From the NCBI GenBank assembly GCA_964438335.1, contig CAYTKG010000001.1, positions 1 through 28,946 of the forward strand: a stretch of DNA of 28,946 bases, in the 5' to 3' direction. The notes under the pieces were generated by a model, which worked only from the letters and a program-made list of their open reading frames with translations, had not been told where the DNA came from and made no database searches. Positions 2,742 to 26,488 of this stretch are shown here, one piece after another. The DNA is from an uncultured Candidatus Saccharibacteria bacterium. GTDB taxonomy: Bacteria; Patescibacteriota; Minisyncoccia; Minisyncoccales; CAYTKG01. Each line of letters begins with the position of its first letter. Position 1 is the first letter of the stretch. The translations under genes and the position numbers were made by a program.

Positions 2742-2779
2742 CTTGACAAGAGATGGTTATGGGTATATACTCATAACAA
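2742..2779 (+). promoter_or_regulatory. Sigma70 promoter with overlapping palindromic operator, copy 1 (upstream of DUF5320)
   Basis: TTGACA 2743-2748, 17-bp spacer, TATACT 2766-2771. Palindrome GTTATGGGTATATACTCATAAC at 2756-2777 (10 of 11 pairs). 35/38 identical to 20236-20273. Confidence 0.85.
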
Positions 2780-2826
2780 AGGTCGAAGAGATTAAAAATT
2801 ATTAAATTATTATTTGAAACAAAAAT

Positions 2827-3084
2827 ATGCCAAGGTTTGACGGAAGTGGTCCTCTGGGTTTAGGTCCGGGCACCGGTCGGGGATTAGGTCCTTGCGGCGC
2901 TGGTTTGGGTTGGAGAAGAGGTTTTGGCCGAGGTTTCGGTTGGAGAAGGTTTTGGGGTTATCTTCGTCGATCCCCAATGAGCAAAAAGGAAGAAGTTGAA
3001 ATGCTTACAGACGAAGCCGCAGTTTTGGAAGACGAATTAAAAGCGATTAAAGAACGCCTGAACGAATTGAGGACTAAAAAATAA
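2827..3084 (+). CDS. DUF5320-family Gly/Arg-rich small protein
   Basis: MPRFDGSGPLGLGPGTGRGLGPCG start, GRGFG repeats, and C-terminal coiled coil ELKAIKERLNEL. Confidence 0.85.
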   Translation: MPRFDGSGPLGLGPGTGRGLGPCGAGLGWRRGFGRGFGWRRFWGYLRRSPMSKKEEVEMLTDEAAVLEDELKAIKERLNELRTKK

Positions 3085-3098
3085 AGAGAGCAGGGGAG

Positions 3099-3165
3099 CC
3101 CGGTTTTTCAAAGAGCCGGGTTTTTCTGTTTTGGGTTATTTATCCGGGCTTTTGCTCGGATTTTT
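3099..3165 (+). terminator. Two tandem hairpins with T-tracts after DUF5320
   Basis: CCCGGTTTTT-CA-AAGAGCCGGG+TTTTT (3099-3125) and ATCCGGGC-TTTT-GCTCGGAT+TTTT (3142-3165). Confidence 0.65.
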
Positions 3166-3228
3166 AGTTTGCTAAAATAGAAAAATGCAAAATTAATTAC
3201 CTTGATAAGTCATAAATATGTTTTCATG

Positions 3229-3270
3229 TTAAAATAAAACAAAGGCCAATTAAAATAAAACAAAGGTCAA
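3229..3270. repeat. 21-bp tandem duplication TTAAAATAAAACAAAGG(C/T)CAA in the DUF1003 promoter/leader
   Basis: 3229-3249 vs 3250-3270, one mismatch. The first copy overlaps an extended -10 TGtTAAAAT (3227-3235). Confidence 0.85.
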
Positions 3271-3294
3271 GAAGATAAAAAAAGGAAATAAAAT

Positions 3295-3705
3295 ATGGTT
3301 AAGAAAAAAATTAGTAAAATAGACGGCAAAATAGAAGATGAATTTAGCGCCGGAATGAAAGATACTTTTTCGGAAAGACTGGAGCAGGGAATAGTGAATT
3401 TTATCGGTTCTTGGCTTTTTTTGCTGTTGAATATAGTTTTTTTTGTCTTGTGGTTAATTTTGAAACTATCTTATAATCAGCTTACTTTTTGGGTTTCTTT
3501 GGAAGCGATTGTTTTATCGGTTTTAATTTTGATTAACGCCAACAAGGAGACGGGGAACGATAGAAAGAGAGCAATTAAAGATTATAAAATTGATATGAGT
3601 GTGGCCCAAAGAGCAAAGGGAATAGAAAGAGAGATTAAAGAGATAAAAGAAAAAATTAACTGGTTAGCAGAAAAAATGAGCCGAGAGAGACGGGCACCAA
3701 AATAA
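3295..3705 (+). CDS. DUF1003-family two-TM membrane protein
   Basis: IVNFIGSWLFL...LTFWVSLEAIVLSVLILINANK...DRKRAIKDYKID followed by a coiled coil. Confidence 0.8.
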   Translation: MVKKKISKIDGKIEDEFSAGMKDTFSERLEQGIVNFIGSWLFLLLNIVFFVLWLILKLSYNQLTFWVSLEAIVLSVLILINANKETGNDRKRAIKDYKIDMSVAQRAKGIEREIKEIKEKINWLAEKMSRERRAPK

Positions 3706-3744
3706 AGACAAGCAGGATAATTTGGATTGAGGGAGATTTTTGAT

Positions 3745-3772
3745 TTGACTTTTTTTAAAAAAGCGATATGAT
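3745..3772 (+). promoter_or_regulatory. Putative sigma70 promoter for secDF
   Basis: TTGACT-16 bp-TATGAT. Confidence 0.4.
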
Positions 3773-3840
3773 AGGATGCTGAAAGGGGAGTTAAATTAAA
3801 GACATAAAGATAATTTAGGGCTTTTTTTATTATTTATTTT

Positions 3841-5238
3841 ATGATCGAGAGAAAGAAAACTTTTATTATTTTGGGTATTCTTTTAGTTTTAACTTTCTTT
3901 TTGGCTAATTTTTGCTACCCAAAATACTTTAATCAAGGAATTGATTATTTTAATTCAAGGACCGGCCTGAATCTGCCTCATTTTTGGAGTGTGCCTTTCA
4001 AATTAGGGCTTGGTTTGGAAGGGGGCATTCATCTTGTTTACGAAGCCGATTTGTCTAATATCGACAAAAAAGATTACGCTTCCTCGATGGAAGGACTGAA
4101 AGACGTAATCGAAAGGAGGGTTAATCTTCTCGGGGTCGAAGAGCCGGTGATTCAAATAGAAAAAACACCGAGTCATTATCGGCTAATAGTAGAATTAGCC
4201 GGCATTAAGGATTCGGCTAAGGCAATTAAAGTGATTGGTCAAACTCCTTTTTTAGAATTTAGAGAGGAACGAGCCGAGGAAGAAACCGAGAAAATTCTGG
4301 CTAAACAAGAGGAGTTAAAAGGGAAAACCGAGGAAGAGTTTAAAAAAATCGAAAACTGGCAATTGGTCTTTGAAGATCCTTATTTTAAGTCCACTTCCTT
4401 GACCGGAAGATATTTAAAAAGAGCTGATTTGCAATTTGACCAGATTACTTTTGAACCTATTGTTGTTCTTCAGTTTAATGACGAAGGCGGGAAGATTTTG
4501 AAAGATTTGACCTCGAGGAATGTTGGTAAACGTTTGGCCATTTACATTGACAATGTTTTGGTTTCCGCTCCGGTTGTTCGGGAGGCAATTTCTAAAAAAG
4601 AGGCTCAGATTACGGGAAAATTTACGGTTGAAGAAGCCAGAAAATTAGCGAGGAACCTTAATTCCGGCGCTTTGCCGGTTCCGGTGAAATTGATTTCCCA
4701 ACAGATAGTTGGGCCGAGCTTAGGAAAAGTTTCCTTGGTGAGATCATTAAAAGCAGGGATTATCGGTTTTTTGGTGGTTATTCTCTTTCTAATTATTTTT
4801 TACAGACTGCCCGGTCTTTTGGCTTCCTTTGCTTTGATTACTTATATTGTTATAAACTTAGCCATTTTCAAATTGATTCCGGTGGTTTTAACTTTAGCAG
4901 GTATTGCCGGTTTTATTCTTTCGATGGGAATGGCTATTGATGCCAATATTTTGATATTTTCTAGGATGAGAGAAGAATTTAAAAAAGGAAAAACATATAG
5001 CGAGGCCCTAAAAGAAGGAATAAAGCTTGCCTGGCCCTCTATTCGCGACGGCAATTTAACCACGATTTTGGTTGCCATAATTCTCTTTATTTTCGGCACC
5101 AGCTTTGTTAAGGGTTTTGCCTTTACTCTTGTTATCGGCAACTTGGTTAGTCTTTTCTCTGCTGTTTTTGTGACCAATACTTTTTTGGAATGTTTTAGGG
5201 GAACTCGGTTTGAAAATTGGCGATGGTTGTGGCAATAA
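3841..5238 (+). CDS. secD: Protein translocase subunit SecD
   Basis: KLGLGLEGG, IERRVNLLGVEEP, LNSGALPVP, VGPSLG, LTLAGIAGFILSMGMAIDANILIF. Confidence 0.97.
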   Translation: MIERKKTFIILGILLVLTFFLANFCYPKYFNQGIDYFNSRTGLNLPHFWSVPFKLGLGLEGGIHLVYEADLSNIDKKDYASSMEGLKDVIERRVNLLGVEEPVIQIEKTPSHYRLIVELAGIKDSAKAIKVIGQTPFLEFREERAEEETEKILAKQEELKGKTEEEFKKIENWQLVFEDPYFKSTSLTGRYLKRADLQFDQITFEPIVVLQFNDEGGKILKDLTSRNVGKRLAIYIDNVLVSAPVVREAISKKEAQITGKFTVEEARKLARNLNSGALPVPVKLISQQIVGPSLGKVSLVRSLKAGIIGFLVVILFLIIFYRLPGLLASFALITYIVINLAIFKLIPVVLTLAGIAGFILSMGMAIDANILIFSRMREEFKKGKTYSEALKEGIKLAWPSIRDGNLTTILVAIILFIFGTSFVKGFAFTLVIGNLVSLFSAVFVTNTFLECFRGTRFENWRWLWQ

Positions 5239-5257
5239 TTAATTTGAATTAAAAACG

Positions 5258-6145
5258 ATGATTAATTTCTTAAAATATCGTAAATTTTATTATCTTTTCT
5301 CCGGCCTTTTGATTTTAGTCAGTTTGGGAGGTCTAATTGTTTTTGGTTTAAACCCAGGAATTGATTTCAAGGGCGGAACGATTTTGGAACTAGAATTTGA
5401 ACAAAGACCGGAAAATTCGGTTATTCGGGAGAAATTAGCTCAATTTGATTTGGGCGAAGTCACTGTCCAGCCTGCCGGTCAGGACAATGTCATTTTAAGA
5501 TTTAAAGATATTGACGAAAAAACTCACCAAGAAATAATTTCTGCTCTTAATGAAATTTCAAAAGCAGAGGAAATCCGTTTTGAGAACATTGGGCCAATAA
5601 TGAGCAAAGAAATGCGCTCTAAAACTTTGATTTTGATATTCTTTTCTGTATTGACAATGTTTGTCTATATGGCCATTGCTTTTAGAAAAATTCCTCCTCC
5701 TATTTCCAGCTGGCAATTTGGAATGGTTTCGATTATCACTCTTTTCTTCGATATTCTTATTCCTCTTGGCCTTTTTGCCTTCTTGGGGAAATTTTATAAT
5801 GTCCAATTTAACATTCCTATTGTTACCGCTCTTCTAACTATTTTGGGCTACACGATGAATGATAAAGTAATAGTTTTAGACAGAACTCGAGAAAATCTCT
5901 TAACAAGCCACGAAACTGATTTTGAAAAGTTGGTTAATTTAAGCTTAAATCAGGTCTTGTCGCGTTCTCTCAGTACCGGCACTTGTACTCTTCTTATTTT
6001 ATTGATTCTCTTTTTCTTTGGCGGAGAAACCCTAAAATATTTTTCTTTGACTTTGTTTGTGGGTATTCTCGTGGGGACATATTCATCTTTATTTTTAGCC
6101 AGTCCTATTTTGGTAACTTGGCTGAATCGAAAAAGAAATTCGTAG
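5258..6145 (+). CDS. secF: Protein translocase subunit SecF
   Basis: GIDFKGGT, FENIGP, ILGYTMNDKVIVLDRTREN, GTYSSLFLASP; adjacent to secD. Confidence 0.97.
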   Translation: MINFLKYRKFYYLFSGLLILVSLGGLIVFGLNPGIDFKGGTILELEFEQRPENSVIREKLAQFDLGEVTVQPAGQDNVILRFKDIDEKTHQEIISALNEISKAEEIRFENIGPIMSKEMRSKTLILIFFSVLTMFVYMAIAFRKIPPPISSWQFGMVSIITLFFDILIPLGLFAFLGKFYNVQFNIPIVTALLTILGYTMNDKVIVLDRTRENLLTSHETDFEKLVNLSLNQVLSRSLSTGTCTLLILLILFFFGGETLKYFSLTLFVGILVGTYSSLFLASPILVTWLNRKRNS

Positions 6146-6494
6146 ATAAGGGAATTTATAGGGGGCGATAAAATTTCTACTCTAACCAAAATCAAAATTG
6201 ATAATTCCGGGCTTGGCTTTACGGATAAAAAGGAGCTTTTCGGAGAAGGGGAGACTCGAACCCTTCTGAAAAGGGCTCAAGATCTTGGTTATGAAATTTG
6301 GGAAGAAGCAGGAACCTTTTTTATTAACTTTTGATGATTTACGATAAAATAAAAGGATAAAGGCTTTATTCTGGCGGGGAATTTTTATCAAAATTTTGAA
6401 ATCATAGGCCAGCAGGTTAACTTTTCGAGATTTTTTTGAGTTTTTTAGGTAAAATAAAACAATATGGAAAAAATAATTTCAAAAGAAGAATTAG

Positions 6495-7688
6495 ATGGAA
6501 AGAAGCAAATTAGAAATTAAAGAACTGCTCAATCGGGGAGTAGAAAAAGTAGTAGTAAAAAAACATTTAGAGCAGGCCCTTAAAAGCGGCAAAAAACTCA
6601 GGGTGAAATTTGGTATTGATCCCACCGGTTCTAAGATTCATTTAGGAAGGGCTATTCCTCTTTGGAAACTTCGGGTTTTTCAGGAGTTGGGCCATCAAGT
6701 GGTTTTAATTATCGGCGATTTTACCGCCCAAATTGGAGATGCCTCGGATAAACAAACCATGCGTCGGACTTTATCGGAAAAGGAAGTAAAAGAAAATATG
6801 AAGGATTATATTAAGCAAATCAGCCGGATTTTAGAGATGGATAGGGTCGAACTTCACTATAACAGCGAATGGTGGGGAAAATTAAAAGCCAAAGATTTAT
6901 TGGCTTTAGCCATGAAATTTACGGCCCAACAAATGATTCAGCGAAGGAATTTTAAAGAACGTTGGGACCGGGGAAAACCCATTGGTTTGCACGAACTTGA
7001 TTATCCCTTGCTTCAAGGTTACGATTCTGTGGCCGTAAAAGCTGATGTTGAAATTGGCGGTTTTGATCAATTGTTTAATTTAGAAATCGGTCGAGAAGTT
7101 CAGCGGATTTTTGGCCAGCCGCCCCAGGATATTATGCTTTTTCAAATGCTGCCCGGCTTAGATGGCCGGAAGATGTCCACTAGTTGGGGCAACGTGATTA
7201 CCATTGTTGATAGACCGAACGAGATATACGGAAAGGTAATGTCAATGAGAGATGAGATGATTTTAGAATATTTTAAATTGGCAACCCGGCTTCCGCTCAA
7301 GGAAATAAAAAAGATTGAAAGAGATTTAAAGAGCAGAAAATTGCATCCTAAAGAGGCCAAGAGTCGATTAGCCAGGGAGATTGTTAGTTTGTATCATGGC
7401 GGAAAAGCCGCTGAAAAGGCAGAAAAAGAATTTGAAAAAGTTTTTAAAGAAAAAAAATTGCCCGCCAGGATACCAAGTTTTAAATTATCTGAGAAAGAAA
7501 TGTCTCTTCTTGATGTTCTTTCGAAAACCAAATTGGTTGCTTCAAAATCAGAAGCAAAGCGACTTATTTTACAAAAAGGGGTGAAAATCAACGGTGAAGT
7601 TCAAAAGGACTGGCAAAAAGTTTTAGAAATTAAAGAGGGGATAATAATTCAAGTAGGGAAGAGAAGGTTTGTTAAAATAAAAACTTAA
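6495..7688 (+). CDS. tyrS: Tyrosine--tRNA ligase
   Basis: KFGIDPTG, HIGH-like HLGR, YPLLQGYDS, EIGGFDQLFN, KMSKS-like KMSTS, and C-terminal S4 domain (SKSEAKRLILQKGVKING). Confidence 0.97.
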   Translation: MERSKLEIKELLNRGVEKVVVKKHLEQALKSGKKLRVKFGIDPTGSKIHLGRAIPLWKLRVFQELGHQVVLIIGDFTAQIGDASDKQTMRRTLSEKEVKENMKDYIKQISRILEMDRVELHYNSEWWGKLKAKDLLALAMKFTAQQMIQRRNFKERWDRGKPIGLHELDYPLLQGYDSVAVKADVEIGGFDQLFNLEIGREVQRIFGQPPQDIMLFQMLPGLDGRKMSTSWGNVITIVDRPNEIYGKVMSMRDEMILEYFKLATRLPLKEIKKIERDLKSRKLHPKEAKSRLAREIVSLYHGGKAAEKAEKEFEKVFKEKKLPARIPSFKLSEKEMSLLDVLSKTKLVASKSEAKRLILQKGVKINGEVQKDWQKVLEIKEGIIIQVGKRRFVKIKT

Positions 7689-7701
7689 GTTAGAGAACAA
7701 G

Positions 7702-8151
7702 ATGAAAGATTTTTTATTATTAATTGTTCTTTGGGTTTTAATAGGAATTTTTGCCATAATTGTTAGTCCGATGGTGATTCCGGCTTTTAGAAAGTATGTG
7801 AATTTTTGCTTGGTGATAGTTTCTGGTATTAGTTTTTCTTTGCTTGGATTAATTTTGATATTTTTAACCTTAAGGGGAAAAATTAAAGGGAAGCTAAAAA
7901 AAAGTTTATTTTTGATTGGAATTTCTGCTATTGGTTTTTTTGTTAGCATTTTGCTTCATAATCTTTTTTACGGCCTAAGCATAATTACCAGTCAGACTAC
8001 CTGGTTAAGTTATTTGGCGAAGGGTCTTGAGGGCGGTTTCTTTATTCTTGGAGTTTTTATTTGTCCTTTTGGTTTTTTAGGAGGCATAATAACCAGTTTT
8101 CTTTTGTTTATTAAAAGAAAGAAAAAGGGAGAGGGGATTTTTCTTGAGTAG
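7702..8151 (+). CDS. Hypothetical integral membrane protein (about 4 TM)
   Basis: 149-aa ORF with four hydrophobic stretches; ILLHNLFYGL motif. Confidence 0.75.
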   Translation: MKDFLLLIVLWVLIGIFAIIVSPMVIPAFRKYVNFCLVIVSGISFSLLGLILIFLTLRGKIKGKLKKSLFLIGISAIGFFVSILLHNLFYGLSIITSQTTWLSYLAKGLEGGFFILGVFICPFGFLGGIITSFLLFIKRKKKGEGIFLE

Positions 8152-8196
8152 AACAATTTTCTCTTTTCAAGTTTTATTTTTTGAAATTAATAGAGG

Positions 8197-8217
8197 CCGA
8201 ACCATTGTTCGGTTTTT
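8197..8217 (+). terminator. Intrinsic terminator after the tyrS/membrane-protein pair
   Basis: CCGAAC-CATT-GTTCGG followed by TTTTT. Confidence 0.6.
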
Positions 8218-8237
8218 AATTAAGAGTGGTTGGAGAT

Positions 8238-14115: not shown

Positions 14116-15744
14116 ATGATGGCTAAGAAAACTTTGGCGACAATTTTAGTTATTGGGGGGATTCTTTTTTCCTCAGTTTTTAGTTATCGGTTTCTTTTAA
14201 AGTCTCAAAAGCCGCTTTTTGAAACCGCTGTTATCAAGAAGGGAAATATTTTTCAAGAAGTTTTAGCCACCGGTCAGGTAAAAAGAGGCGAAGAAATTTC
14301 CCTTGCCTTTAAAGATACGGGTAGAATTGAAAAGATATTTGTAAAAGTAGGGGAGGTGGTGGAAGCGAATACTCAATTGGCTAAACTTGAAACTACAGAA
14401 CTTGAAATTCAACTTAAAGAGGCCCGGGCCAATCTGACTGTTTCCCGGGCCGAACTTGAAAAATTATTGGCCGGAGCCACCAAGGAAGAAATCGATTTAA
14501 CCAAAGCTCAAGTGGATAGCGCCGAAACGGCTTTAAGAAAAGCAGAGCAGAATTTGACTGATAAACAAATCAATGCCCAAGAAGATCTTAAGAATGCTTA
14601 TCAAGACGCCCTAAACACGTTGGAAGATTCCTACCTGAAACTTTATAACGCCCAGAATACGGTTGATTTAATTCAACGGACTTATTTTGTTGTTTATGAT
14701 CAGGATGGTCTCGATGTTCAAGAAAACAAGGCGAGAATAGAAAAAGCAACGGCTCGAGCAAAAGATTATCTTGATGCGGCTAAAAATTCCTTTGAGGACA
14801 GAGATATCGAAACGGCTCTTTCCGAAATGAAAAGGGCTTTAGAAACCGCTTCTGAATCTTTAAGAATCGTTCGGGAAATATCGGAAAAACCGGCTTATCG
14901 CTCCCTTGTTTCTGCCGGCGACAAAACTTCGTTGGATAATCAGCGTTCTTATGTTACTACCGCCTTGACTAATACGGTCAATGCCCAACAGACAATTTCT
15001 TCTACTAAGGCCAATAATGGGTTGATTCTTAACGCGGCTAAAGCTGATGTTTCTTTGGCCGAAAAAACTTTGGAAGAAGCCAAAAGAAGCTTGGCCAAGG
15101 TGATGGCCTCGCCTCGCCAAGAAGACATCGATTTATGCCAAGCCAAAGTAGAACAGGCGGAAGCCCAAGTGATTCTTTTGGAAAACAAAATTAAAGAAGC
15201 AGTTCTAAGGGCCCCGGTCAAGGGTCAGATAACAGAGATAGATAAGAAAGAAGGAGAGATGGTTCAGGTTTTATCTCGGGTAATTTTTTTAATTCCTCAA
15301 AAACCTTTTCAAGTTGAAGCAGATATTCCTGAGGTTGATATTGGCAAGATTGATTTGGGCGATTCTTCAAAGATTGCCCTTGATGCTTTTGGAGAAGAAG
15401 AATTTTCGGGGAAAGTAATTGAGATTGATCCGGCCGAAACAATTATCCAGGGGGTGGTTTATTACCGGGTGAGAATTTCTTTGGATACCGAGGAAGAAAA
15501 GATAAAACCGGGAATGACGGCTAATGTGATTATTGCCGCCCATTCAAAACAAAATGTATTGGTTTTGCCCCAAAGGGCGGTGATTGAAAAAGGAGGAAAA
15601 AAGTTTGTCAGGGTGCCGATTGATAATAAAAATTTCAAAGAAGTTGAAATTAAAACAGGTCTGCGAGGAAACGGGGGGGAGGTTGAAATTATAGCCGGCT
15701 TAGAAGAAGGGGACAAAGTCATCACTTTTCTTAAAGAAAAGTGA
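14116..15744 (+). CDS. MacA/HlyD-family efflux adaptor subunit with a very long alpha-helical hairpin
   Basis: N-terminal TM; GRIEKIFVKVGEVVEANTQLAKL lipoyl half; long coiled coil; LRAPVKGQI; KIKPGMTANV; EVEIKTGLRG...EIIAGLEEGDKV. Confidence 0.9.
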   Translation: MMAKKTLATILVIGGILFSSVFSYRFLLKSQKPLFETAVIKKGNIFQEVLATGQVKRGEEISLAFKDTGRIEKIFVKVGEVVEANTQLAKLETTELEIQLKEARANLTVSRAELEKLLAGATKEEIDLTKAQVDSAETALRKAEQNLTDKQINAQEDLKNAYQDALNTLEDSYLKLYNAQNTVDLIQRTYFVVYDQDGLDVQENKARIEKATARAKDYLDAAKNSFEDRDIETALSEMKRALETASESLRIVREISEKPAYRSLVSAGDKTSLDNQRSYVTTALTNTVNAQQTISSTKANNGLILNAAKADVSLAEKTLEEAKRSLAKVMASPRQEDIDLCQAKVEQAEAQVILLENKIKEAVLRAPVKGQITEIDKKEGEMVQVLSRVIFLIPQKPFQVEADIPEVDIGKIDLGDSSKIALDAFGEEEFSGKVIEIDPAETIIQGVVYYRVRISLDTEEEKIKPGMTANVIIAAHSKQNVLVLPQRAVIEKGGKKFVRVPIDNKNFKEVEIKTGLRGNGGEVEIIAGLEEGDKVITFLKEK

Positions 15745-15746: not shown

Positions 15747-15873
15747 ATAAATTCCAAATCTCAGATTCTAAAATCCAAATAAATTCCAAATCTTAGATTC
15801 TAAACGGTTTAGAGTTTTAGTCATTGGAATTTAAATTATTATTTGTTATTTGGTGCTTGCGATTTGGAAGTTT
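15747..15873. repeat. Intergenic direct+inverted repeat element (AATTCCAAAT / ATTTGG type)
   Basis: 26-bp direct repeat (15747-15772 vs 15779-15804, one mismatch), central palindrome TCTAAAC-G-GTTTAGA (15799-15813), and right arm GATTTGGAAGTTT complementary to left AAATTCCAAATC. Confidence 0.75.
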
Positions 15874-15881: not shown

Positions 15882-16553
15882 GTGATTAAGGTTCGCGATT
15901 TAAGAAAAATTTATTCTGGCGCCGTCCCCACCGTGGCTATCGATGGGGTCTCTTTTGATATTCAAGAGGGAGAATTTGTAGCCATTATGGGTCCCTCGGG
16001 TTCGGGCAAATCAACTCTAATGCATATTTTGGGTTTTTTAGACAAGCCCACTTCGGGAAGTTATCAATTTTGGAATCGGGAGATTTCAGAATTTTCCGAA
16101 CAAGAAATGGCTAAAATTAGAAATAAGAAAATAGGGTTTGTTTTTCAGATGTTTAATCTCTTACCGAGGTTGAATATTTTAGAAAACATAGAGTTGCCCC
16201 TTCTTTATTCAGGGATTACAAAATCAAAAAGAAACGAATTGGTGATGAGGGCGATTGAAGAAGTTTCTCTTTCTCATCGGCTTTCTCATTTTCCCAATCA
16301 GCTTTCCGGCGGCGAGCAGCAAAGAGTGGCTATTGCTCGGGCCTTGGTTAATGACCCGGCGGTGATTTTTGCTGACGAGCCCACTGGTAATTTAGATTCG
16401 GAGTCCGGCCAGCGAATTTTAGATATTTTTCAGAATTTAAACCAAAAAGGCCGGACTATTATTTTAGTTACTCATGAAGAGCAGATTGCCAAAAGAGCCA
16501 GACGCATTTTGTATTTGGTTGACGGAAAATTAATCAAAGACGAACTGAAATAA
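15882..16553 (+). CDS. ABC transporter ATP-binding protein (MacB/LolD-like)
   Basis: [40 protein letters not shown]. Confidence 0.95.
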
Positions 16554-16555
16554 AA

Positions 16556-17818
16556 ATGAAGTTATTAAATGCAATCAAAATCGCCATTTTTTCTTTAAGA
16601 ACAAATAAAACCCGTTCCTTTTTGGCAATGCTTGGCATTATTATCGGGATTGCCTCGGTTATCATTATGGTTTCCATCGGTAATGGAGCGAGGAATTTAA
16701 TTGTTCGGCAAATTGTTTCTTTTGGTTCGAACAATATTTTTATCGAGCCCGGGCCCTGGTCAAAAAGAATGGAAAGGGGTCAGTTATTCCAGTCAGCTTT
16801 AGAGGAATCTGAAATTAAAACTTTAACTTTAAAGGATGCTGAGGCAATTGAGAAATTGCCTAGCGTTGAAATGGTTGCTCCTTTTGTTGTTGGTGTTGGC
16901 CGGGTTATTTATAAAGATACCAACAAGAAAATTACTTTTATGGGTTCAACCTCCTCAGCCGGAGAAATAATGGGAGTGGGAGTGACCCGAGGTCGGGATA
17001 TAACCGAGCAGGAGATAAAGGCGATGGCTAGGGTGGCTGTTTTAGGATATAAAACAGCAGCGGATTTATTTGGTGAAGAAGACCCGATTGGCAAGACTAT
17101 TAGAATAAAAAAAACCAATCTAAGGGTGATTGGTGTTTTAGAAGAGGGGGGAATGCAGATGTTTATGAATTTAGACGAGATAGTTTATGTTCCGGTGACC
17201 ACCGCCCAGAAAGTTTTATTAGGCATTGATTATATTAGATGGATTATTGTTAGGGCCAAGAATGAAGAGGCGATCAATGAAGCGATTAGAGATATCCGTC
17301 TTCTGTTAAGAGAAAGACACGGTATTTATAATCCGAAGGGAGATCTCTCAAGAGATGATTTTAAAGTAATTAGCCAGGAGGAGACCGCCGAAATGCTCGG
17401 GACGGTAACCGGTGTTTTTACCGCCTTTCTTTCGGTGGTAGCTGCTATTTCCTTGGTAGTGGGCGGCATTGGAATAATGAATGTGATGTTGGTTTCAGTA
17501 ACGGAAAGAACTAGGGAGGTGGGTTTGCGGAAGGCGGTCGGAGCCCAAAAAAGAGATATTTTGTGGCAGTTTTTATTGGAATCAATTACCCTGACAATCC
17601 TCGGAGGGGCAGGAGGAATTTTATTGGGAATAGCCGGTTCTTTTCTGGGCGGAATAGCGATTGGTTATTTTTTGAATTTAGAATGGGGCTTTGTTTTGCC
17701 GTTAATAGGGATTTTAACCGCTTTCGGCGTTTCCACCATTATTGGCTTGGTTTTTGGAATTTACCCGGCTCATAAAGCGAGCCAATTAAACCCAATCGAT
17801 GCTTTGCGCTATGAATAA
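16556..17818 (+). CDS. ABC transporter permease (MacB_PCD + FtsX)
   Basis: NKTRSFLAMLGIIIG, SLVVGGIGIMNVMLVSVTERTREVGLRKAVGA, FGIYPAHKASQLNPIDALRYE. Confidence 0.95.
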   Translation: MKLLNAIKIAIFSLRTNKTRSFLAMLGIIIGIASVIIMVSIGNGARNLIVRQIVSFGSNNIFIEPGPWSKRMERGQLFQSALEESEIKTLTLKDAEAIEKLPSVEMVAPFVVGVGRVIYKDTNKKITFMGSTSSAGEIMGVGVTRGRDITEQEIKAMARVAVLGYKTAADLFGEEDPIGKTIRIKKTNLRVIGVLEEGGMQMFMNLDEIVYVPVTTAQKVLLGIDYIRWIIVRAKNEEAINEAIRDIRLLLRERHGIYNPKGDLSRDDFKVISQEETAEMLGTVTGVFTAFLSVVAAISLVVGGIGIMNVMLVSVTERTREVGLRKAVGAQKRDILWQFLLESITLTILGGAGGILLGIAGSFLGGIAIGYFLNLEWGFVLPLIGILTAFGVSTIIGLVFGIYPAHKASQLNPIDALRYE

Positions 17819-19198: not shown

Positions 19199-19205
19199 AT
19201 AATTT

Positions 19206-20162: not shown

Positions 20163-20191
20163 ATAATAAAACCCCCCTTTTTTGATGTCAA
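20163..20191 (-). promoter_or_regulatory. Sigma70 promoter of the ABC TMD gene
   Basis: TTGACA (20191-20186), 17 bp, TATTAT (20168-20163); divergent from the CDF promoter. Confidence 0.65.
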
Positions 20192-20235
20192 TCTAAAATG
20201 ACTTCTTTTAAGAACTGCCCGAAATTGCGCCCCCG

Positions 20236-20273
20236 CTTGACAAAAGATGGTTATGGGTATATACTCGAAACAA
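20236..20273 (+). promoter_or_regulatory. Sigma70 promoter with overlapping palindromic operator, copy 2 (upstream of CDF-NifX)
   Basis: TTGACA 20237-20242, 17 bp, TATACT 20260-20265; GTTATGGGTATATACTCGAAAC at 20250-20271; 35/38 identical to 2742-2779. Confidence 0.85.
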
Positions 20274-20290
20274 GTTGAGAGCAGAAATTT

Positions 20291-21517
20291 ATGAATCCCC
20301 AAACAATTTCCTTAATTAGTATTTTTATCAATTTTGCTTTGGGCATAACCAAGGTGATTTTTGGTTTTTTTATCAACAGTACAGCCGTAATTGCCGATGG
20401 GCTTGAATCCGGTTTAGATGTCATTTCCTCTTTTATTACCTTTTTGGGTCTTCGGATTGCCAAAAAGCCGGTTGATAAAACCCATCCTTATGGCTATTTT
20501 AAAGCCGAGAGTTTGGCCGGGTTCGTTATTAGCTTGTTTCTTCTTATTTCCGGTATTTGGATTTTGTATGAGGCAACAAAGCGTTTTTTAAGCGGAGAGA
20601 CGGTGACATTTTCGATAAACGCTATTATAATGATGATAGTTTCGATTTTGGTGACTGAGTTAATGGCAAGATGGAAATTTCATTTCGGAAAGAAACATCA
20701 GAGCCTGGTCTTGGTAGCCGATGCGGAACATTCCCGGTCCGATGTTTTGGCTTCAACTGGCGTTCTGATAGGACTGGGTCTGAGTCGATATTTTAGTTTT
20801 GCCGATAATCTTATTGCCTGGCTGATTGGCGGCTATATTATTTTTGAGGCTTTTAAAATCGGCCGAGAGATTACCGATTCTTTATTGGATGTGGCTAACC
20901 AGGAAATTGAGGAAAGAATTGAGAAAATTTGTCGAGCTCATAAAATCGAAATTGCTGATTTAAAAACCAGGAAAATTGGGGCTTTTAATTTTGCCGAGAT
21001 TAAAATTAAATTGGCCCCAAAATTAAAAGTCGATGAGGTGGCTAAAATCACTGCTTTCCTGGAAGAAAAGCTTTTGAACAATATTCCGGAATTAAAACAA
21101 ATTGTGATATCCATCGAGCCCTATCAGATGACAAGAAGCGTGATTGTCCCTGCTTTTGGCGGGAAAATATGTTCTTCCAAGGGCTTTGAAAGAATCGGCC
21201 CGAAGAAATTGGGGAAAAGAATTATTGTTCCCTGGGGAGAAGGAGAAATAAGTTCTCGTTTTGGAGCCAGCCAGTATCTGATTATCGATGTAAAAAATAA
21301 TCAAATTTTAACTAAAGAAATTGTTAAAAATCCTTATTTTGAGGAAGGAACCTCTCGGGGGACAAGATTTGCCAAGGCGGTGAGGGCCGACAAAGTTCTC
21401 GTCCGACAGATTGGGCCCAATGCTAAGCAAAATCTGGAAAATTCCGCTATTGAGATAATAATCGTTCCTCCGGGAAAAGATTTAAAGCAACTCTTGGAAG
21501 AAATTAAATTCAATTAA
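20291..21517 (+). CDS. Cation diffusion facilitator transporter with C-terminal NifB/NifX-like (FeMo-cofactor-binding fold) domain
   Basis: KPVDKTHPYGYFKAESLAG, ADAEHSRSD, dimerisation domain (LKTRKIG), then ISSRFGASQYLIIDV...ADKVLVRQIGPNAKQNLENSAIEII. Confidence 0.88.
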   Translation: MNPQTISLISIFINFALGITKVIFGFFINSTAVIADGLESGLDVISSFITFLGLRIAKKPVDKTHPYGYFKAESLAGFVISLFLLISGIWILYEATKRFLSGETVTFSINAIIMMIVSILVTELMARWKFHFGKKHQSLVLVADAEHSRSDVLASTGVLIGLGLSRYFSFADNLIAWLIGGYIIFEAFKIGREITDSLLDVANQEIEERIEKICRAHKIEIADLKTRKIGAFNFAEIKIKLAPKLKVDEVAKITAFLEEKLLNNIPELKQIVISIEPYQMTRSVIVPAFGGKICSSKGFERIGPKKLGKRIIVPWGEGEISSRFGASQYLIIDVKNNQILTKEIVKNPYFEEGTSRGTRFAKAVRADKVLVRQIGPNAKQNLENSAIEIIIVPPGKDLKQLLEEIKFN

Positions 21518-21573
21518 AGAATTTTGTTATATTCAAGAATTTAAGAAGTTTCCAGGGAGAAACCCTTTTATTT

Positions 21574-22845
21574 ATGAACAATCAAAGTTTTTTTTCGGAT
21601 AGTCAAAAAAGGTTTAGAGAAATTGCCGAGATTTTAAAATTAAAACCGGCTGTTGTTCAGGAATTAGAAGAACCTCAAAGATTGATTAAATTTCAGATTC
21701 CGGTTTTGATGGACAATGGTGGAATAAGGACTTTTATTGGCTTTCGGTCTCAGCACAATAACGCTCTTGGCCCTTATAAGGGTGGTATTCGTTTTGGCCC
21801 CGGGGTTTCCGAAGACGAAGTTAAGGCCTTGTCGATGTTGATGACCTGGAAATGTTCTTTGGCCAACCTTCCTTTTGGCGGCGCCAAAGGAGGGGTAATT
21901 GTTGATCCCCGAAAACTAAGTAGAAAAGAACTAGAGGGGTTTTCCCGGGGATATGTTCGGGAGATTTTTTCTTGGTTGGGACCGGAGCTTGATATTCCGG
22001 CGCCCGATGTCAACACCAATCCTCAGATTATCAGTTGGATGGTTGATGAATATTCCCGGTTGAGCGGTAAATTCAGTCCAGGAGCTTTTACCGGCAAACC
22101 AGAAGAACTTTGGGGCCTAAAAGGAAGGAGAGAGGCGACCGGTTTTGGCGGCGTTGTTATTCTTGAAAACCTGGGCCAAGTGTTTAATTTTGGGCCCAAA
22201 GAAACAACTATTGCCATTCAGGGTTTTGGCAATGTCGGTGCTAATTTTGCTCTTTTTGCTTTTCAAAAAGGTTATAAAATTTTAGCTGTTTCTGAAAAGG
22301 AAGGCGGAATTTATGTTGAAAAGGGCTTGAATCCGGAAGAAACACTAAAGTGTCGAGAAAAAAAGGGGAAAATAGCCGGCTGCTACTGCTTTGGTTCGGT
22401 TTGCGATTTAAGTCATGGCAGGCAGATTAGCAATCAAGAGCTTTTAGAAATGAAAGTTGATGTTTTGGTGCCGGCCGCAATTGAGAATGTGATTACCAAA
22501 GAAAATGCTTCTAGGATTAAAGCAAAATATATCATTGCTATGGCTAACGGTCCGATTACTTCTGCCGCTCAAAAGATTTTGGAAGAAAAAGGAAAAATTA
22601 TTGTTCCCGATTTTTTAGCCAATGCCGGCGGGGTGATTGCTTCTTATTTTGAGTGGCTTCAGGCAAAAAGCGGTCTCTTTTGGGAAAAAGAGAAAACTTT
22701 TAAGGAGCTTTCAATGATTTTAGAAAAGTCTTTTAAAGAAGTTTGGGCTTTGGCCGAGAAAGAAAAGACAGGGTTGACAAAAGCGGCCTATCTTCTGGCC
22801 GTTTCCCGGGTGGCTAAAGCTATTAAATCAAAACGGGGAATATGA
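21574..22845 (+). CDS. gdhA: Glu/Leu/Phe/Val dehydrogenase (glutamate dehydrogenase-like)
   Basis: GPYKGGIRF, LMTWKC, GGAKGG, DIPAPDVNT, IQGFGNVG, ANGP, PDFLANAGGV. Confidence 0.93.
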   Translation: MNNQSFFSDSQKRFREIAEILKLKPAVVQELEEPQRLIKFQIPVLMDNGGIRTFIGFRSQHNNALGPYKGGIRFGPGVSEDEVKALSMLMTWKCSLANLPFGGAKGGVIVDPRKLSRKELEGFSRGYVREIFSWLGPELDIPAPDVNTNPQIISWMVDEYSRLSGKFSPGAFTGKPEELWGLKGRREATGFGGVVILENLGQVFNFGPKETTIAIQGFGNVGANFALFAFQKGYKILAVSEKEGGIYVEKGLNPEETLKCREKKGKIAGCYCFGSVCDLSHGRQISNQELLEMKVDVLVPAAIENVITKENASRIKAKYIIAMANGPITSAAQKILEEKGKIIVPDFLANAGGVIASYFEWLQAKSGLFWEKEKTFKELSMILEKSFKEVWALAEKEKTGLTKAAYLLAVSRVAKAIKSKRGI

Positions 22846-24011
22846 AAAAGGCACTTTTTATCATTTTTGCCTTACTTTTTGTTTTAAGTGGTTTTAATTT
22901 TGCCTTAGCTCAAGAAAAAATAGAGATTAATTTCTTTTATAGCAAAACTTGTTTTCATTGCGCCAAAGAAAAGGCATTTTTGGAAAATCTCAAAGAAAAG
23001 TATCCGGAAATTGAGCTTAAGGAATTAGGAATTTTTAAACGGGAAAATGTTGTTTCGTTAAAAGAATTTTACGAACGATACCAAGTTTCTTCTAAGGCCA
23101 GAGGTTATGTGCCTATTACTTTTATCGGCACGAAATATTTTTTGGGCTATGACAATGATGAAAATACCGGCAAGCAGATTGAAGATTATATTTTGTCGTT
23201 GATTGAAGAAAATGGAACCATTGTTTCTCCTTATGGTCATACCCGGCTTCGGCTTCCAATTATTGGCCAAGTTGATATTTCAAAACTTTCTCCTTTGGCT
23301 TTGGCAATTATTTTGGGCACTCTTGACGGTTTTAATGCCTGCGCGATGATCGCTTTGGGATTTCTTTTAACTTGTTTGGTGGCTACCGGAATGAGAAGAA
23401 AAATAATCTTGGCTGGCGGTGTTTTTATATTTATTTCCGGGTTGGTTTATTTTCTTTTCATTTCTGCTTGGCTCAATCTCTTTTTGGTTTTGGAACAAAT
23501 AAAACTAATTACTTCTTTGGTGGGGGTAATCATCATTATCTTCTCGATTTTTTTACTCAAAGATTATTTTCAAGGAATAGTTTGTCGGTTGTGTGAAGTT
23601 AGTCCAAATGAAAAGAGTCTTTTTGCCAGAATCGAAAAAACCCTTTTAAGGAAGATGGAAGGAATTTCTAAAGCTGAAATTCCTCTTGTTTTGTTTTTAA
23701 TCGGCGTGGCTCTTATTGCCGCCGGTGTTAATCTGGTGGAATTAATTTGTTCCTTTGGTTTTCCTTTGGCTTTTACTAAGATTTTGGCCGACTTGAAATT
23801 GTCCCCATTTGTTTATTATCTCCTTTTGCTTGTCTATGTCCTTTTTTATATGATTGATGATTTTTTAATTTTTCTCCTTGCCGTTTTCACTTTAAGAATC
23901 ACTCAGGTTTCCCAGAGATATTTGAAAGTGATTAAGCTTGTTTCTGGAGTTCTTCTTTTAGTCTTGGGCTTAATAATCCTTTTGCGGCCAGAATTTTTAA
24001 TGTTTGGTTAA
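22842..24011 (+). CDS. Thioredoxin/glutaredoxin-like domain (CFHC) fused to a multi-TM DsbD/cytochrome-c-biogenesis-like domain
   Basis: Signal peptide; FFYSKTCFHCAKEK; YVPITFIG cis-Pro motif; TM region with DGFNACAM and VELICSFGFP. Confidence 0.75.
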   Translation: MKKALFIIFALLFVLSGFNFALAQEKIEINFFYSKTCFHCAKEKAFLENLKEKYPEIELKELGIFKRENVVSLKEFYERYQVSSKARGYVPITFIGTKYFLGYDNDENTGKQIEDYILSLIEENGTIVSPYGHTRLRLPIIGQVDISKLSPLALAIILGTLDGFNACAMIALGFLLTCLVATGMRRKIILAGGVFIFISGLVYFLFISAWLNLFLVLEQIKLITSLVGVIIIIFSIFLLKDYFQGIVCRLCEVSPNEKSLFARIEKTLLRKMEGISKAEIPLVLFLIGVALIAAGVNLVELICSFGFPLAFTKILADLKLSPFVYYLLLLVYVLFYMIDDFLIFLLAVFTLRITQVSQRYLKVIKLVSGVLLLVLGLIILLRPEFLMFG

Positions 24012-24054
24012 AATTAAAAAGGTCGAAATAAAAAAAGAGCAATCTTTTAAAAGT

Positions 24055-24609
24055 ATGGAAAGAGAAAAAGCATTAAATTTACTCCAAGAAAACATTAAAA
24101 ATCAAAATCTGATTAAGCATTGTTTGGCAGTTGAGGCGGCGATGAAAGAACTGGCTGAACATTTCGGAGAAGAAAAAGAAAAATGGGGTCTTTGCGGACT
24201 TTTACACGATATTGATTATGAAGAAACTAAAGACAATCCCGAACTGCATTCAAAAGTCGGAGCCGAGATGTTAAGGGATTTTGGCTTGGAAGAGGAGATT
24301 TGCCAGGCGGTTTTGACTCACAATCAGGTTCACGGAATTGAACCCAAAACTTTAATGGCCAAAGCCCTTTATTGTGTTGACCCTTTAACCGGTCTGATAG
24401 TAGCGGCTGTTTTAGTTTTGCCTTCAAAGAAATTGAACGACCTAAGAGTAGAAAATGTTCTGAATCGATTTAAAGAAAAGGGTTTTGCCCGGGGAGCCAA
24501 TCGGGAAATCATTGCCAGAGCCGAAGAATTTCTCAATCTATCTCTTGAAGAATTTATCAGGATTACTTTGAAAGGAATGCAAAAAATTTCTGCCGATTTA
24601 GGCCTCTAA
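24055..24609 (+). CDS. HDIG-type HD-domain phosphohydrolase
   Basis: LIKHCLAVE, GLLHDIDYE, PELHS, VLTHN, CVDPLTGLI, FKEKGFARG. ATG24055 preferred over 24004. Confidence 0.88.
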   Translation: MEREKALNLLQENIKNQNLIKHCLAVEAAMKELAEHFGEEKEKWGLCGLLHDIDYEETKDNPELHSKVGAEMLRDFGLEEEICQAVLTHNQVHGIEPKTLMAKALYCVDPLTGLIVAAVLVLPSKKLNDLRVENVLNRFKEKGFARGANREIIARAEEFLNLSLEEFIRITLKGMQKISADLGL

Positions 24610-24662
24610 TTTTCCTTCAACGTTTAAAACAGTCTAAACCCGAAATTAGACCGCTTGATGAA

Positions 24663-25367
24663 ATGACCAAAGACGCAATTTTGAGTGTTAAAAATTTAAA
24701 TGTAATTTTAGAAGGAGAAGAAATTATTAGGGATTTGTCGTTTGAAATCAAAGAAAATGAAATTTTTACCATTTTGGGCCCCAATGGGGCCGGCAAGACC
24801 ATTCTCCTGAGAACTCTTTTGGGTCTCTTGCCTTACAAAGGAGAAATAAAATGGAAAAAGGAGCTGAAAATTGGTTATTTACCCCAGGGTTTAACTCAAT
24901 TAAAGGTGAAAGAGCTGCCCTTATCTGTTAGTGAATTTTTTGGCCTTAAAGATATTTCCCAAGAAAAAGCAAAATATTTCTTAGAGTTGGTAGGAATTGG
25001 GGAGAAGGCATTTTTAGAGAAAGAGGCCGGTAATTTATCTTCGGGGCAATTTCAAAGAATGCTGATTGCTTGGGTTTTGAGCGACAATCCCCGGGTTCTC
25101 CTTTTTGACGAACCGACAACCGGAGTTGATGTTGGTGGCGAGGAAACAATTTATTCGCTTTTATATCGTTTCTGGAAAGAAAAAAAATTAACGATCTTGC
25201 TGGTAACTCATGATTTAAATGTGATTTATAAATATTCGACCAGGGTTTTATGTTTAAACAAAAGAGAAATTTGTTCTGGCCCGCCCCGCGAGATTTTGAG
25301 TCCGGAAGTTTTGGAAGAAACATACGGTTCGGGAATTAAATTCTATCAGCATCATCATTCAATATGA
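24663..25367 (+). CDS. znuC: Metal (Zn/Mn) ABC transporter ATP-binding protein
   Basis: GPNGAGKT, IGYLPQ, LSSGQFQR, LLFDEPTTGVD, VTHD, C-terminal HHH. Confidence 0.88.
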   Translation: MTKDAILSVKNLNVILEGEEIIRDLSFEIKENEIFTILGPNGAGKTILLRTLLGLLPYKGEIKWKKELKIGYLPQGLTQLKVKELPLSVSEFFGLKDISQEKAKYFLELVGIGEKAFLEKEAGNLSSGQFQRMLIAWVLSDNPRVLLFDEPTTGVDVGGEETIYSLLYRFWKEKKLTILLVTHDLNVIYKYSTRVLCLNKREICSGPPREILSPEVLEETYGSGIKFYQHHHSI

Positions 25368-26140
25368 TTTCTCAATCTATTTTAACTTTAATTACGGCAA
25401 TTTTTATTGGCGGTGCGGCCGGCTATATTGGTTCTTTGATGTTGACGAAAAGAATGGCTTTGGTTGGTGGTCCTTTAGGCCATCTGGCTTTGCCAGGAGT
25501 GGCTTTAGCCCTAATTTATCATTTTAATATTTTTCTCGGGGCCTTGTTTTCTATTTTTTTGGGGATATTTTTCATTTGGTTTTTTGAGACCAAAACAAAA
25601 CTTTCCCTTGAGGCCTTAACCGGCGTGGTTTTTGCCTCGGGGGTGGCCTTGGGCTTTTTGATTCTGCCAATGTCTCACGCAGAAGAAGCAATTGTTGGAG
25701 ACATTACCAAGGTGGACTTGCTTGATGCTTTTTTGGCTGTGGGGTTGGGAAGTGTTATCTTTTTGGCGACAAGAAAAATTTACAAAAAAATTGTTTTGAC
25801 TTCAATCTCCGAGGACTTGGCTAGGGCTAGACAAATTAATATCAAGAAAATAAATTTTATTTATCTTTTATTAATTGCTTTTATTACCGCCCTGGAAGTT
25901 AAGATAATTGGTATTTTGCTTACGGCTGCCCTTTTTGCTATTCCTGCCTCAACCGCCAGAAATTTAAGCAAAAATCTTTTTCAGTATTCTTTGTTCAGCA
26001 CCGTTGTCGGTATTATTTCCGCTCTTTCCGGAATCATCCTTTTTAAAATTACTAATTTCCCAGCCGGTCCTTTAATGATTCTCTCTTCGAGCTTGTTGTT
26101 TTTACTTTCTTTGGTCTTCAAACGAAAAACGGCTTATTAG
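25364..26140 (+). CDS. znuB: Metal (Zn/Mn) ABC transporter permease (ABC-3)
   Basis: KRMALVGGPLGHLALPGVAL, EALTG, IVGDI, VKIIGILLTAALFAIPASTA; 4-bp overlap with znuC. Confidence 0.88.
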   Translation: MISQSILTLITAIFIGGAAGYIGSLMLTKRMALVGGPLGHLALPGVALALIYHFNIFLGALFSIFLGIFFIWFFETKTKLSLEALTGVVFASGVALGFLILPMSHAEEAIVGDITKVDLLDAFLAVGLGSVIFLATRKIYKKIVLTSISEDLARARQINIKKINFIYLLLIAFITALEVKIIGILLTAALFAIPASTARNLSKNLFQYSLFSTVVGIISALSGIILFKITNFPAGPLMILSSSLLFLLSLVFKRKTAY

Positions 26141-26206
26141 AATAATTTTTATTGTTTAACAAGCGAATCGACCATTTAAAAATAGTTAAAAAGCTTAGTA
26201 ACTTTT

Positions 26207-26488
26207 ATGGCGAGGCCCAAAAAACAAAGAATGATTAGGTTTGACCCTAACGTAACCTATTTTAAACCGAGAGCGGTGCCGCTTTCGGTTTTAAAAGAAG
26301 TAAACCTGGAAGTGGATGAATTAGAAGCCATTCGGCTTTGCGATTTAAAAGATTGCAATCAGATTGAGGCCGCCAAAAAAATGGGCATTTCTCAAAGCAC
26401 GCTTCAACGAATTTTGGTTTCTGCTCGGAGAAAAGTGGCCGAGGCCTTAATTGAGGGCAAGGCAATTAAGATAAGAAAAAATAGATGA
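26207..26488 (+). CDS. DUF134 / UPF0251 putative HTH DNA-binding protein
   Basis: MARPKKQR...YFKPRAVP...DELEAIRLCD...QIEAAKKMGISQSTLQRILVSARRKVAEALIEGKAIKI. Confidence 0.93.
   Translation: MARPKKQRMIRFDPNVTYFKPRAVPLSVLKEVNLEVDELEAIRLCDLKDCNQIEAAKKMGISQSTLQRILVSARRKVAEALIEGKAIKIRKNR

Follow-up and report, generated by a model that had tools for sequence, protein, structure and literature searches.

Small helix-turn-helix (HTH) repressors which regulate their own genes through a palindromic operator overlapping the promoter, with a box conserved across phyla, include LexA (SOS box), HrcA (CIRCE), Rex and NrdR. By gene content, the nearest described system to the locus reported here is the ORP (orange protein) cluster of Desulfovibrio vulgaris, where control of such clusters involves sigma-54, IHF and OrpR, an Fe-S redox sensor (PMC8359166). 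No functional study of either DUF134 (UPF0251, COG1342, PF02001) or DUF5320 was found in the full-text literature searched. The locus lies on a stretch of 28,946 nt (the window; 37% G+C) from an uncultured Candidatus Saccharibacteria bacterium, the closest relatives of which, judged by their DUF134 loci, are Parcubacteria/Paceibacterota metagenome-assembled genomes (MAGs). It possesses two copies of a 38-nt element, the first upstream of a DUF5320 gene and the second upstream of a run of seven co-directional genes, the seventh of which encodes DUF134. The repeat described in a first-pass annotation of the window was confirmed, and comparative evidence supports the interpretation placed upon it: DUF134 quite probably represses its own regulon via a 22-bp operator laid over the promoter, in an operon that appears to have been split with duplication of the promoter-operator.

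The circuit proposed for DUF134 is that of an ordinary autoregulated HTH repressor and its operator, its unusual feature being a box conserved across phyla. As with LexA, HrcA, Rex and NrdR, a 22-bp palindrome appears to lie over the predicted -10 hexamer or transcript start, the regulator gene is found inside the putatively regulated operon, and the box is conserved across distant phyla with one to few sites per genome. DUF134 differs from these systems in that no target, structure or effector has been described for its family, in the very small size of the protein (~92 aa), which lacks a sensor domain in members of the Candidate Phyla Radiation (CPR), and in a promoter geometry that varies between lineages (-10 versus start site).

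The likeness to the ORP cluster is seen in operons headed by the same site in relatives (e.g., L137), which encode Nitro_FeMo-Co proteins and paired MinD-like 4Fe-4S P-loop ATPases, and in a weak match of the C-terminal domain of the window CDF transporter to the MrpORP model. However, the window promoter (TTGACA-17-TATACT) is of the sigma-70 type with a predicted DUF134 operator, and is no sigma-54 promoter. The window also lacks a free-standing NifX, the run has no CbiA/Fer4 MinD-like ATPases, and Nitro_FeMo-Co occurs only as the CDF C-terminal domain; the run has instead a CDF transporter, ZnuBC-like ABC genes, a Glu/Leu/Phe/Val-type dehydrogenase (GDH) and thioredoxin-type genes. Among the window open reading frames (ORFs) scanned, nine ORFs (mostly evident housekeeping or transport) being outside the scan, no EBP/OrpR gene was found and no HTH protein other than DUF134 was detected.

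The element reads CTTGACAA(G/A)AGATGGTTATGGGTATATACTC(AT/GA)AACAA, and its two copies (Table 1) are 35/38 identical (92%), the mismatches being G/A at position 9 of the repeat and AT/GA at 32–33; the sequences flanking them are unrelated. Promoters were predicted by their match to the sigma-70 consensus TTGACA-17-TATAAT, against which each copy scores 11/12 and is joint top in its respective half of the window. Over the -10 lies a dyad, with a left arm of GTTATGgGTAT and a right arm of ATACtCATAAC, which extends across the final 10 spacer bases, the -10 hexamer TATACT and the next 6 bases. In copy 1 the dyad is 20/22 self-complementary (a minus-strand match with 2 mismatches), and in copy 2 the right arm is degenerate, with CGAAAC instead of CATAAC (2 mismatches). 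Allowing up to 3 mismatches, the 22-nt dyad was found nowhere in the window but in these two copies, and it had 0 occurrences in 100 dinucleotide-preserving shuffles of the window. The position, identity and unrelated flanks of the repeat, and the 22-bp dyad over the -10, had all been noted in the first-pass annotation and were borne out by this comparison.

The element was then sought in species genomes (one genome per species, 185,579 species) and in metagenomes. An exact 21-mer was present in two other MAGs, directly upstream of DUF134 in one (L001) and upstream of DUF5320 in the other (L002). The 80 closest DUF134 loci were found to have 34–38 copies of TTGAC-N9/10-RTTATGRRTATATAHTCATAAY (the range reflecting the mismatch or position weight matrix threshold), all on the DUF134 strand and typically 55–90 nt before DUF5320. 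The order in these loci is site, DUF5320 and then either DUF134 directly or NifX-like, CDF-NifX and two ~280-aa genes before DUF134. A further 46 of the closest loci had no site in the flank (≤4 kb), of which four could be checked on the contig (pairs L002/L009, L100/L033, L195/L040 and L198/L075); all four have a site 5.3–6.4 kb upstream, with DUF134 ending a long operon. These distances are comparable to the 5.96 kb between copy 2 and DUF134 in the window. Given the limited flank and these four distant sites, loci apparently lacking a site are not to be taken as negatives, and their use as counterexamples was rejected.

A degenerate-pattern scan of species genomes and a dyad-only scan of metagenomes each yielded at least 120 loci, and the counts given for them here refer to the matches listed. 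The degenerate pattern returned 119 instances, and for the 100 with at least 900 nt downstream the frames past the site were classified with hidden Markov models (HMMs) built from the first locus set. Co-directional DUF134, DUF5320 or NifX-like genes followed in 97/100 instances, with DUF134 reached in 87/100 and DUF5320 the first gene in 77/100. The few real exceptions, on one Clostridium, one Eubacteriales and one Ktedonobacteraceae contig, are imperfect in the right arm and seem to have matched by chance. By handle, the matches that look accidental are L099, L164 and L189, and three apparent exceptions (L185, L188 and L190) were rejected as such, since DUF134 is encoded there once stop-to-stop frames are searched. 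This pattern demanded TTGAC upstream, hence promoter context was not assessable from it and is covered by the dyad-only scan. There the loci range from 29 to 70% G+C, and a DUF134 start was located within 400 nt of the dyad in 97/120 (mostly at 20–60 nt), with DUF5320 or NifX-like genes in 8 more. Co-occurrence of the dyad with DUF134 across genomes, proposed as a check in the first-pass annotation, was thus observed in both collections.

The matches listed include many Patescibacteria as well as contigs titled Acidobacteriota, Planctomycetota, Sumerlaeota, Fibrobacteraceae, Syntrophorhabdus and others; lineage names are record titles, and those from large binning projects may be unreliable. 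In the non-Patescibacteria matches DUF134 is longer (130–253 aa), and the dyad frequently takes the form of a perfect palindrome, RTTATGAGCATATGCTCATAAY. A second dyad-like site was observed in some genomes, either in tandem within the leader (L162, ATTATGAATATTTATTCATAAG) or further apart (L076, at 1939 and 3374); the second promoter-site of L076 precedes a 435-aa gene of no assigned family. The right-arm variant TCAAAA was tried as a marker of long operons and gave no clear difference (3/17 versus 8/78).

The predicted operator has the consensus RTTATGRRTATATAYTCATAAY in the CPR class and the perfect palindrome given above elsewhere. Across 146 collected sites the outer TTATG/CATAA is near-invariant, and positions 9/14 are T:A in 131, C:G in 9 and asymmetric in 6. 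This paired change amounts to a dyad symmetry beyond the needs of a -10 hexamer, and perfect 22-bp palindromes occur at several sites (L012, L041, L086 and L089). In the CPR class the promoter is close to consensus and its -10 hexamer contains the dyad centre. At many of the metagenome loci listed (L208–L327) which carry the GAGCATATGCTC palindrome, the -35 is ~26–31 nt upstream, the -10 is ~3–8 nt upstream and the dyad lies over the predicted start site; in many of these loci the dyad starts 1–2 nt past the -10. One operator would appear to serve two promoter geometries, the overlap with the -10 or transcript start being judged against consensus promoter predictions only. Either placement would block RNA polymerase and is hence consistent with a repressor, in keeping with the reading of the window site in the first-pass annotation.

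A total of 1110 DUF134 homologues were collected, all with PF02001; NCBIfam names the family "hypothetical protein" and sources describe it as a "predicted DNA-binding protein (UPF0251 family)". The AlphaFold2 model of the window protein (predicted local distance difference test score of 78.6) has strands at residues 16–19, 31–34 and 86–90 and helices at 36–47, 52–59 and 63–83. In this predicted fold a three-helix HTH resembling sigma region 4 packs against a small beta-sheet. The nearest folds by Foldseek were extracytoplasmic function (ECF) sigma region 4, GerE and the DeoR DNA-binding domain, with template modelling scores of ~0.5 and root mean square deviations mostly of 0.6–1.2 Å over 40–51 residues; no match reached E 0.001 (best E 0.027), and a sequence search of the PDB found no solved DUF134 structure (best E 0.57). 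In this model the HTH superposes on sigma-70 region 4, GerE/LuxR and Bacillus subtilis DeoR (SorC-family), and sub-threshold sequence matches were obtained to Sigma70_r4 (22.5 versus 24.1 bits) and TIGR02937 (ECF sigma; 29.2 versus 42.9), with a weak match, also below threshold, to DeoR (Pfam, NCBIfam). Unlike these proteins, DUF134 has a conserved N-terminal RPxKxR...YFKP and a beta-sheet from N- and C-terminal strands, and has no sigma region 2, receiver domain or sugar-binding domain. Its classification as a sigma-70 family sigma factor was rejected, with region 4 sub-threshold, region 2 absent and a length of 93 aa. Two Syntrophorhabdus contigs (L135, 5628–6389, and L201) were observed to encode DUF134 fused to a Nitro_FeMo-Co (NifX-like) domain, and the DUF134 of a Sumerlaeota contig (L094) has a zinc ribbon and a Gly/Arg-rich tail; the domains fused to DUF134 are possible sensor domains of the family.

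With the third helix spanning residues 63–83, residue 63 would open the recognition helix. Around this residue the sequence of the window protein is I-S-Q63-S-T-L-Q-R, and T9/A14 is found in the operators of both window copies. When each operator was paired with the DUF134 encoded downstream (118 unique pairs), operator position 9 had its top mutual information with DUF134 HMM column 63. Arg occupies this column in 14/14 pairs with C9 and/or G14; in the 104 T9/A14 pairs it is Gln in 88 and Arg in 2 (Fisher 2e-16, uncorrected for phylogeny). The Gln/Arg switch occurs in at least three lineages, among them Parcubacteria similar to the window type (L170, L036 and L029). In the independent metagenome set, Arg was found in 92/92 DUF134 proteins adjoining the GAGCATATGCTC palindrome at the loci listed, as predicted from the genome pairs. 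In textbook side-chain/base pairings, Gln pairs with adenine and Arg with guanine. The covariation of an operator base pair with a recognition-helix residue in this textbook direction points to DUF134 itself, and not to another protein, as the reader of the dyad, and residue 63 (Gln/Arg) is a candidate specificity determinant. Together with the near-exclusive association of dyad and gene, it supports the earlier assignment of the dyad to DUF134.

In the proposed mechanism, the 38-nt element is a sigma-70-type promoter with the palindromic operator RTTATGRRTATATAYTCATAAY laid over its -10, to which the 93-aa DUF134 protein of the window would bind. It would do so as a dimer, each recognition helix reading one half-site (TTATG and the inner GTAT), with operator position 9/14 contacted by residue 63. 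Bound DUF134 would occlude the -10 and both promoters would be repressed, repression appearing more plausible than activation. Promoter 1 would drive DUF5320, and promoter 2 the CDF-NifX, GDH, thioredoxin-membrane protein, HD, ZnuC, ZnuB and DUF134 genes; as DUF134 is itself within the copy-2 run, the regulator would be autoregulated.

Several observations weigh against this reading. The covariation statistic is uncorrected for phylogeny, with ~three independent lineages showing the Gln/Arg switch, and among the T9/A14 pairs two have Arg (L159 and L080) and in 14 column 63 is gapped or occupied by another residue. Control of the long run may be weakened by the degeneracy of the right arm in copy 2. 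It is also possible, as the first-pass annotation had allowed, that an internal promoter at ~24000 expresses HD, ZnuCB and DUF134 independently of the operator, and a candidate AAAGGTCG box is present before the HD gene at 24018–24025. Lastly, the co-occurrence of DUF5320 with the site is almost as tight as that of DUF134, so that a DUF134-DUF5320 complex is not separable from DUF134 alone.

This last point bears on an alternative in which DUF5320, or an obligate DUF134-DUF5320 complex, recognises the dyad and DUF134 alone does not bind, which we consider unlikely. DUF5320 is the gene most often found first past the site, co-occurs with it across phyla (L086, L135 and L138), and its N-terminus is resembled by the Gly/Arg-rich tail which the L094 DUF134 has besides a zinc ribbon, although that tail gave no Pfam call of DUF5320. 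However, DUF5320 has no recognisable DNA-binding fold (the window protein has a Gly-rich N-terminus and then a coiled coil), DUF134 is directly past the site with no intervening DUF5320 in L001, L081, L112, L174 and most metagenome loci listed, and the variable operator base tracks a residue in the recognition helix of DUF134. Somewhat less likely again is that DUF134, once bound to the dyad, activates transcription or recruits in the manner of sigma region 4, for which the likeness of its HTH to sigma-70 region 4 in sequence and fold would speak. The promoters, at 11/12 of the sigma-70 consensus with a 17-bp spacer, should be strong without the help of an activator, RNA polymerase would be occluded both by a dyad over the -10 (CPR) and by one over a start site right past the -10 (many metagenome loci), and the protein, at 93 aa, has no sigma region 2.

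It is very improbable that a regulator from a different, unlinked family, e.g., of the ArsR/SmtB type, recognises the dyad, with DUF134 merely a regulated gene. The inner TGAACAnnTGTTCA of some operator variants may resemble the 12-2-12 boxes of ArsR/SmtB-type regulators, non-CPR variants reading GTTATGAACATATGTTCATAAC exist (L086 and L185), and metal transporters are among the putative regulon genes. However, no ArsR-type gene was found in the scan of window ORFs described above, no regulator besides DUF134 was found in the site-headed operons examined except for a MarR-type gene past the L189 site (likely a chance match), DUF134 is in cis at most genome and metagenome instances, and the Gln/Arg covariation resides in DUF134. 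That the repeat is merely a duplicated strong promoter or small mobile repeat, its palindrome having no regulatory role, is scarcely credible: the spacer bases shared by the window copies do fit recent duplication, but the conservation of the dyad, with symmetric compensatory change, far exceeds the needs of a -10 hexamer and persists between phyla, also at sites with the -10 outside the dyad, which occurs ~1–2 times per locus and only at DUF134/DUF5320/NifX-like operons. A genome-wide repeat or miniature inverted-repeat transposable element was rejected, there being just 2 copies in 29 kb with unrelated flanks; the first-pass annotation had named a repeat unrelated to these families as an outcome that would count against it, and the two collection scans place the element almost only at DUF134/DUF5320/NifX-like operons. 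A general strong-promoter consensus was also rejected, since other genes of the same loci have no dyad, which occurs 1–2 times per 8-kb locus.

Four of the five closest CDF-NifX relatives have the site 0.7–1.0 kb upstream, before DUF5320, a small gene, NifX and CDF-NifX, and relatives at 56–67% identity occur in site-headed operons. In L202 the operon is unsplit (site, DUF5320, NifX, CDF-NifX, GDH, ZnuC, ZnuB). Given this order, with DUF5320 alone behind copy 1 and copy 2 before CDF-NifX, the window looks like an ancestral operon broken into two halves, both of which have a promoter-operator. The ancestral order would have been site, DUF5320, NifX-like, CDF-NifX, further genes and DUF134, and duplication of the promoter-operator would have kept both halves under common control. 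The -35-to-dyad spacer is poorly conserved between genomes, and the 6/7 bases shared there by copies 1 and 2 suggest a recent duplication within the window genome (a chance match being roughly 1% by rough estimate). With the exception of the HD protein, the families of the copy-2 run (CDF-NifX, GDH, thioredoxin-membrane protein, ZnuC, ZnuB and DUF134) recur in site-headed operons elsewhere. GDH is within those of L023, L098 and L202, ZnuC/ZnuB pairs are behind DUF134 in L114, L130 and L131 and are also present in L202, and thioredoxin-membrane homologues come after DUF134 in many. This recurrence and the unsplit L202 operon support the earlier proposal that the two copies define a split regulon.

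Across genomes the predicted regulon includes DUF5320, thioredoxins, NifX-like proteins, paired MinD-like ATPases with 4Fe-4S inserts, CDF-NifX, CcdA-like thioredoxin membrane proteins, ZnuBC-like ABC genes and GDH. It would appear to have a metal, Fe-S and thiol flavour, and the label "metal/redox" is taken from gene content alone. Given the fusions of DUF134 to a NifX-like domain, a signal may be sensed via NifX-like domains or DUF5320. More tentatively, DUF134, DUF5320 and NifX-like proteins could form one ancient sensing module in which DUF134 reads DNA at a near-universal operator and is released by a metal-sulfur cofactor or redox signal, perceived either by the NifX-like domain (fused to DUF134 in Syntrophorhabdus, stand-alone or CDF-fused in the CPR) or by the Gly/Arg-rich DUF5320.

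Table 1. Promoter-operator copies of the window and the genes and leader box associated with them.
Feature	Position	Strand	Basis and remarks
Promoter-operator copy 1	2742–2779	+	-35 TTGACA 2743–2748; -10 TATACT 2766–2771; dyad GTTATGGGTATATACTCATAAC 2756–2777
AAAGGTCG box	2778–2785	+	Directly past copy 1 dyad, at predicted transcript start
DUF5320 gene	2827–3084	+	Pfam PF17253, 75 bits versus cut-off 27, E 1.2e-20, full-length; first gene behind copy 1
Promoter-operator copy 2	20236–20273	+	-35 TTGACA 20237–20242; -10 TATACT 20260–20265; dyad GTTATGGGTATATACTCGAAAC 20250–20271
CDF transporter with C-terminal NifX-like domain (CDF-NifX)	20291–21517	+	Pfam Cation_efflux, ZT_dimer and Nitro_FeMo-Co; NCBIfam
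Glu/Leu/Phe/Val-type dehydrogenase (GDH)	21574–22845	+	Pfam
Thioredoxin-membrane protein	22842–24011	+	N-terminal CxxC thioredoxin-like segment and CcdA/DsbD-like DGFNAC motif, by eye
HD/HDIG-domain protein	24004–24609	+	Pfam, NCBIfam
ABC transporter ATPase, ZnuC-like	24663–25367	+	Pfam
ABC-3 family permease, ZnuB-like	25364–26140	+	Pfam PF00950, E 9e-43
DUF134/UPF0251 HTH protein, proposed repressor	26207–26488	+	Pfam PF02001, 94.9 bits versus cut-off 27, E 4.4e-27, profile 5–90 of 98

The gene calls of the first-pass annotation were upheld by Pfam for DUF5320, CDF-NifX, GDH, HD, the ABC ATPase, the ABC-3 permease and DUF134 (Table 1); the thioredoxin-membrane protein had no Pfam match, and its description as a CFHC/DGFNAC thioredoxin-like membrane protein is a reading of its sequence only. 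Two terminator-like hairpins come after DUF5320 (3087–3132 and 3142–3161 in a terminator scan), and the gene therefore appears to be monocistronic. The same scan found no convincing terminator inside the copy-2 run, where the CDF-NifX start codon is 18 nt past the end of copy 2 and the intergenic gaps are short or negative. The mechanically called HD ORF begins at a TTG (24004) and overlaps the preceding gene; translation probably begins instead at the ATG at 24055 (MEREKALN...), since a AAAGGTCG box lies 37 nt upstream.

Boxes of this kind were also found in the window at 3262–3269, besides those before DUF5320 and HD. The sequence AAAGGTCR had 175 distinct occurrences in ~3 Mb, of which 101 (58%) were 25–65 nt before an ORF of ≥50 aa starting with ATG, with a peak at 30–50 nt, compared with 6–17% before ORF starts for 12 permuted 8-mers. 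It is often 5–8 nt past a -10-like hexamer (at the transcript start) and followed by an A/U-rich spacer, often with no proximal Shine-Dalgarno. From this placement AAAGGTCR is taken to be a general 5'-leader element of these Patescibacteria and not regulon-specific. The AAAGGTCG box was accordingly rejected as part of the operator or as a regulon-specific riboswitch-like leader; Rfam 15 gave no match at gathering score anywhere in the window, and only chance-level matches within 2650–3320. The 83% identity of 2775–2798 to 3259–3282 is due to the leader box common to both. In ~2/3 of box-bearing DUF5320 leaders (e.g., L029 1755–1790, L051, L130, L148 and L161) the box was observed in a hairpin loop, the 5' arm of which begins at the predicted +1 (AGATAG...), with a stem that varies by compensatory and G-U changes. 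The mean best helix of these leaders is 6.7 bp, versus 5.18 ± 0.21 in partner-swapped controls, 0/200 of which reach 6.7. A tRNA-like fragment considered in the L002 leader was rejected, as ARAGORN found nothing.

Elsewhere in the window, a gene past DUF5320 encodes a DUF1003 membrane protein (3295–3705) and has its own promoter-like site at 3229–3256 and a AAAGGTCA box. A full-length LpxC-family deacetylase is encoded at 1805–2662 (Pfam E 1e-55) in this genome, which has the look of a Parcubacterium, a group generally regarded as being without lipopolysaccharide. Two copies of a 26-nt repeat, ATAAATTCCAAATCT(C/T)AGATTCTAAA, are present at 15747–15804, 32 nt apart and 96% identical, in the gap between an HlyD-like gene (14116–15744) and an ABC ATPase/FtsX-like pair (15882–17818), and may be a regulatory site of the HlyD/ABC efflux operon.

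Both DUF134/UPF0251 and DUF5320 occur widely among anaerobes and in the CPR. The results presented here give the DUF134 family a probable operator, a candidate specificity residue and a first regulon, by which its function becomes testable, and the operator motif can be used for regulon annotation in genomes and metagenome contigs which carry it. They also link the poorly understood ORP/NifX-type clusters to what may be a simple sigma-70-type circuit in uncultured organisms. If the tentative sensing module were true, DUF134 would be a missing general regulator of ORP-like, NifX and MinD-type anaerobe clusters outside Desulfovibrio OrpR, and its circuit would be among the very few transcription circuits definable in uncultured Patescibacteria.

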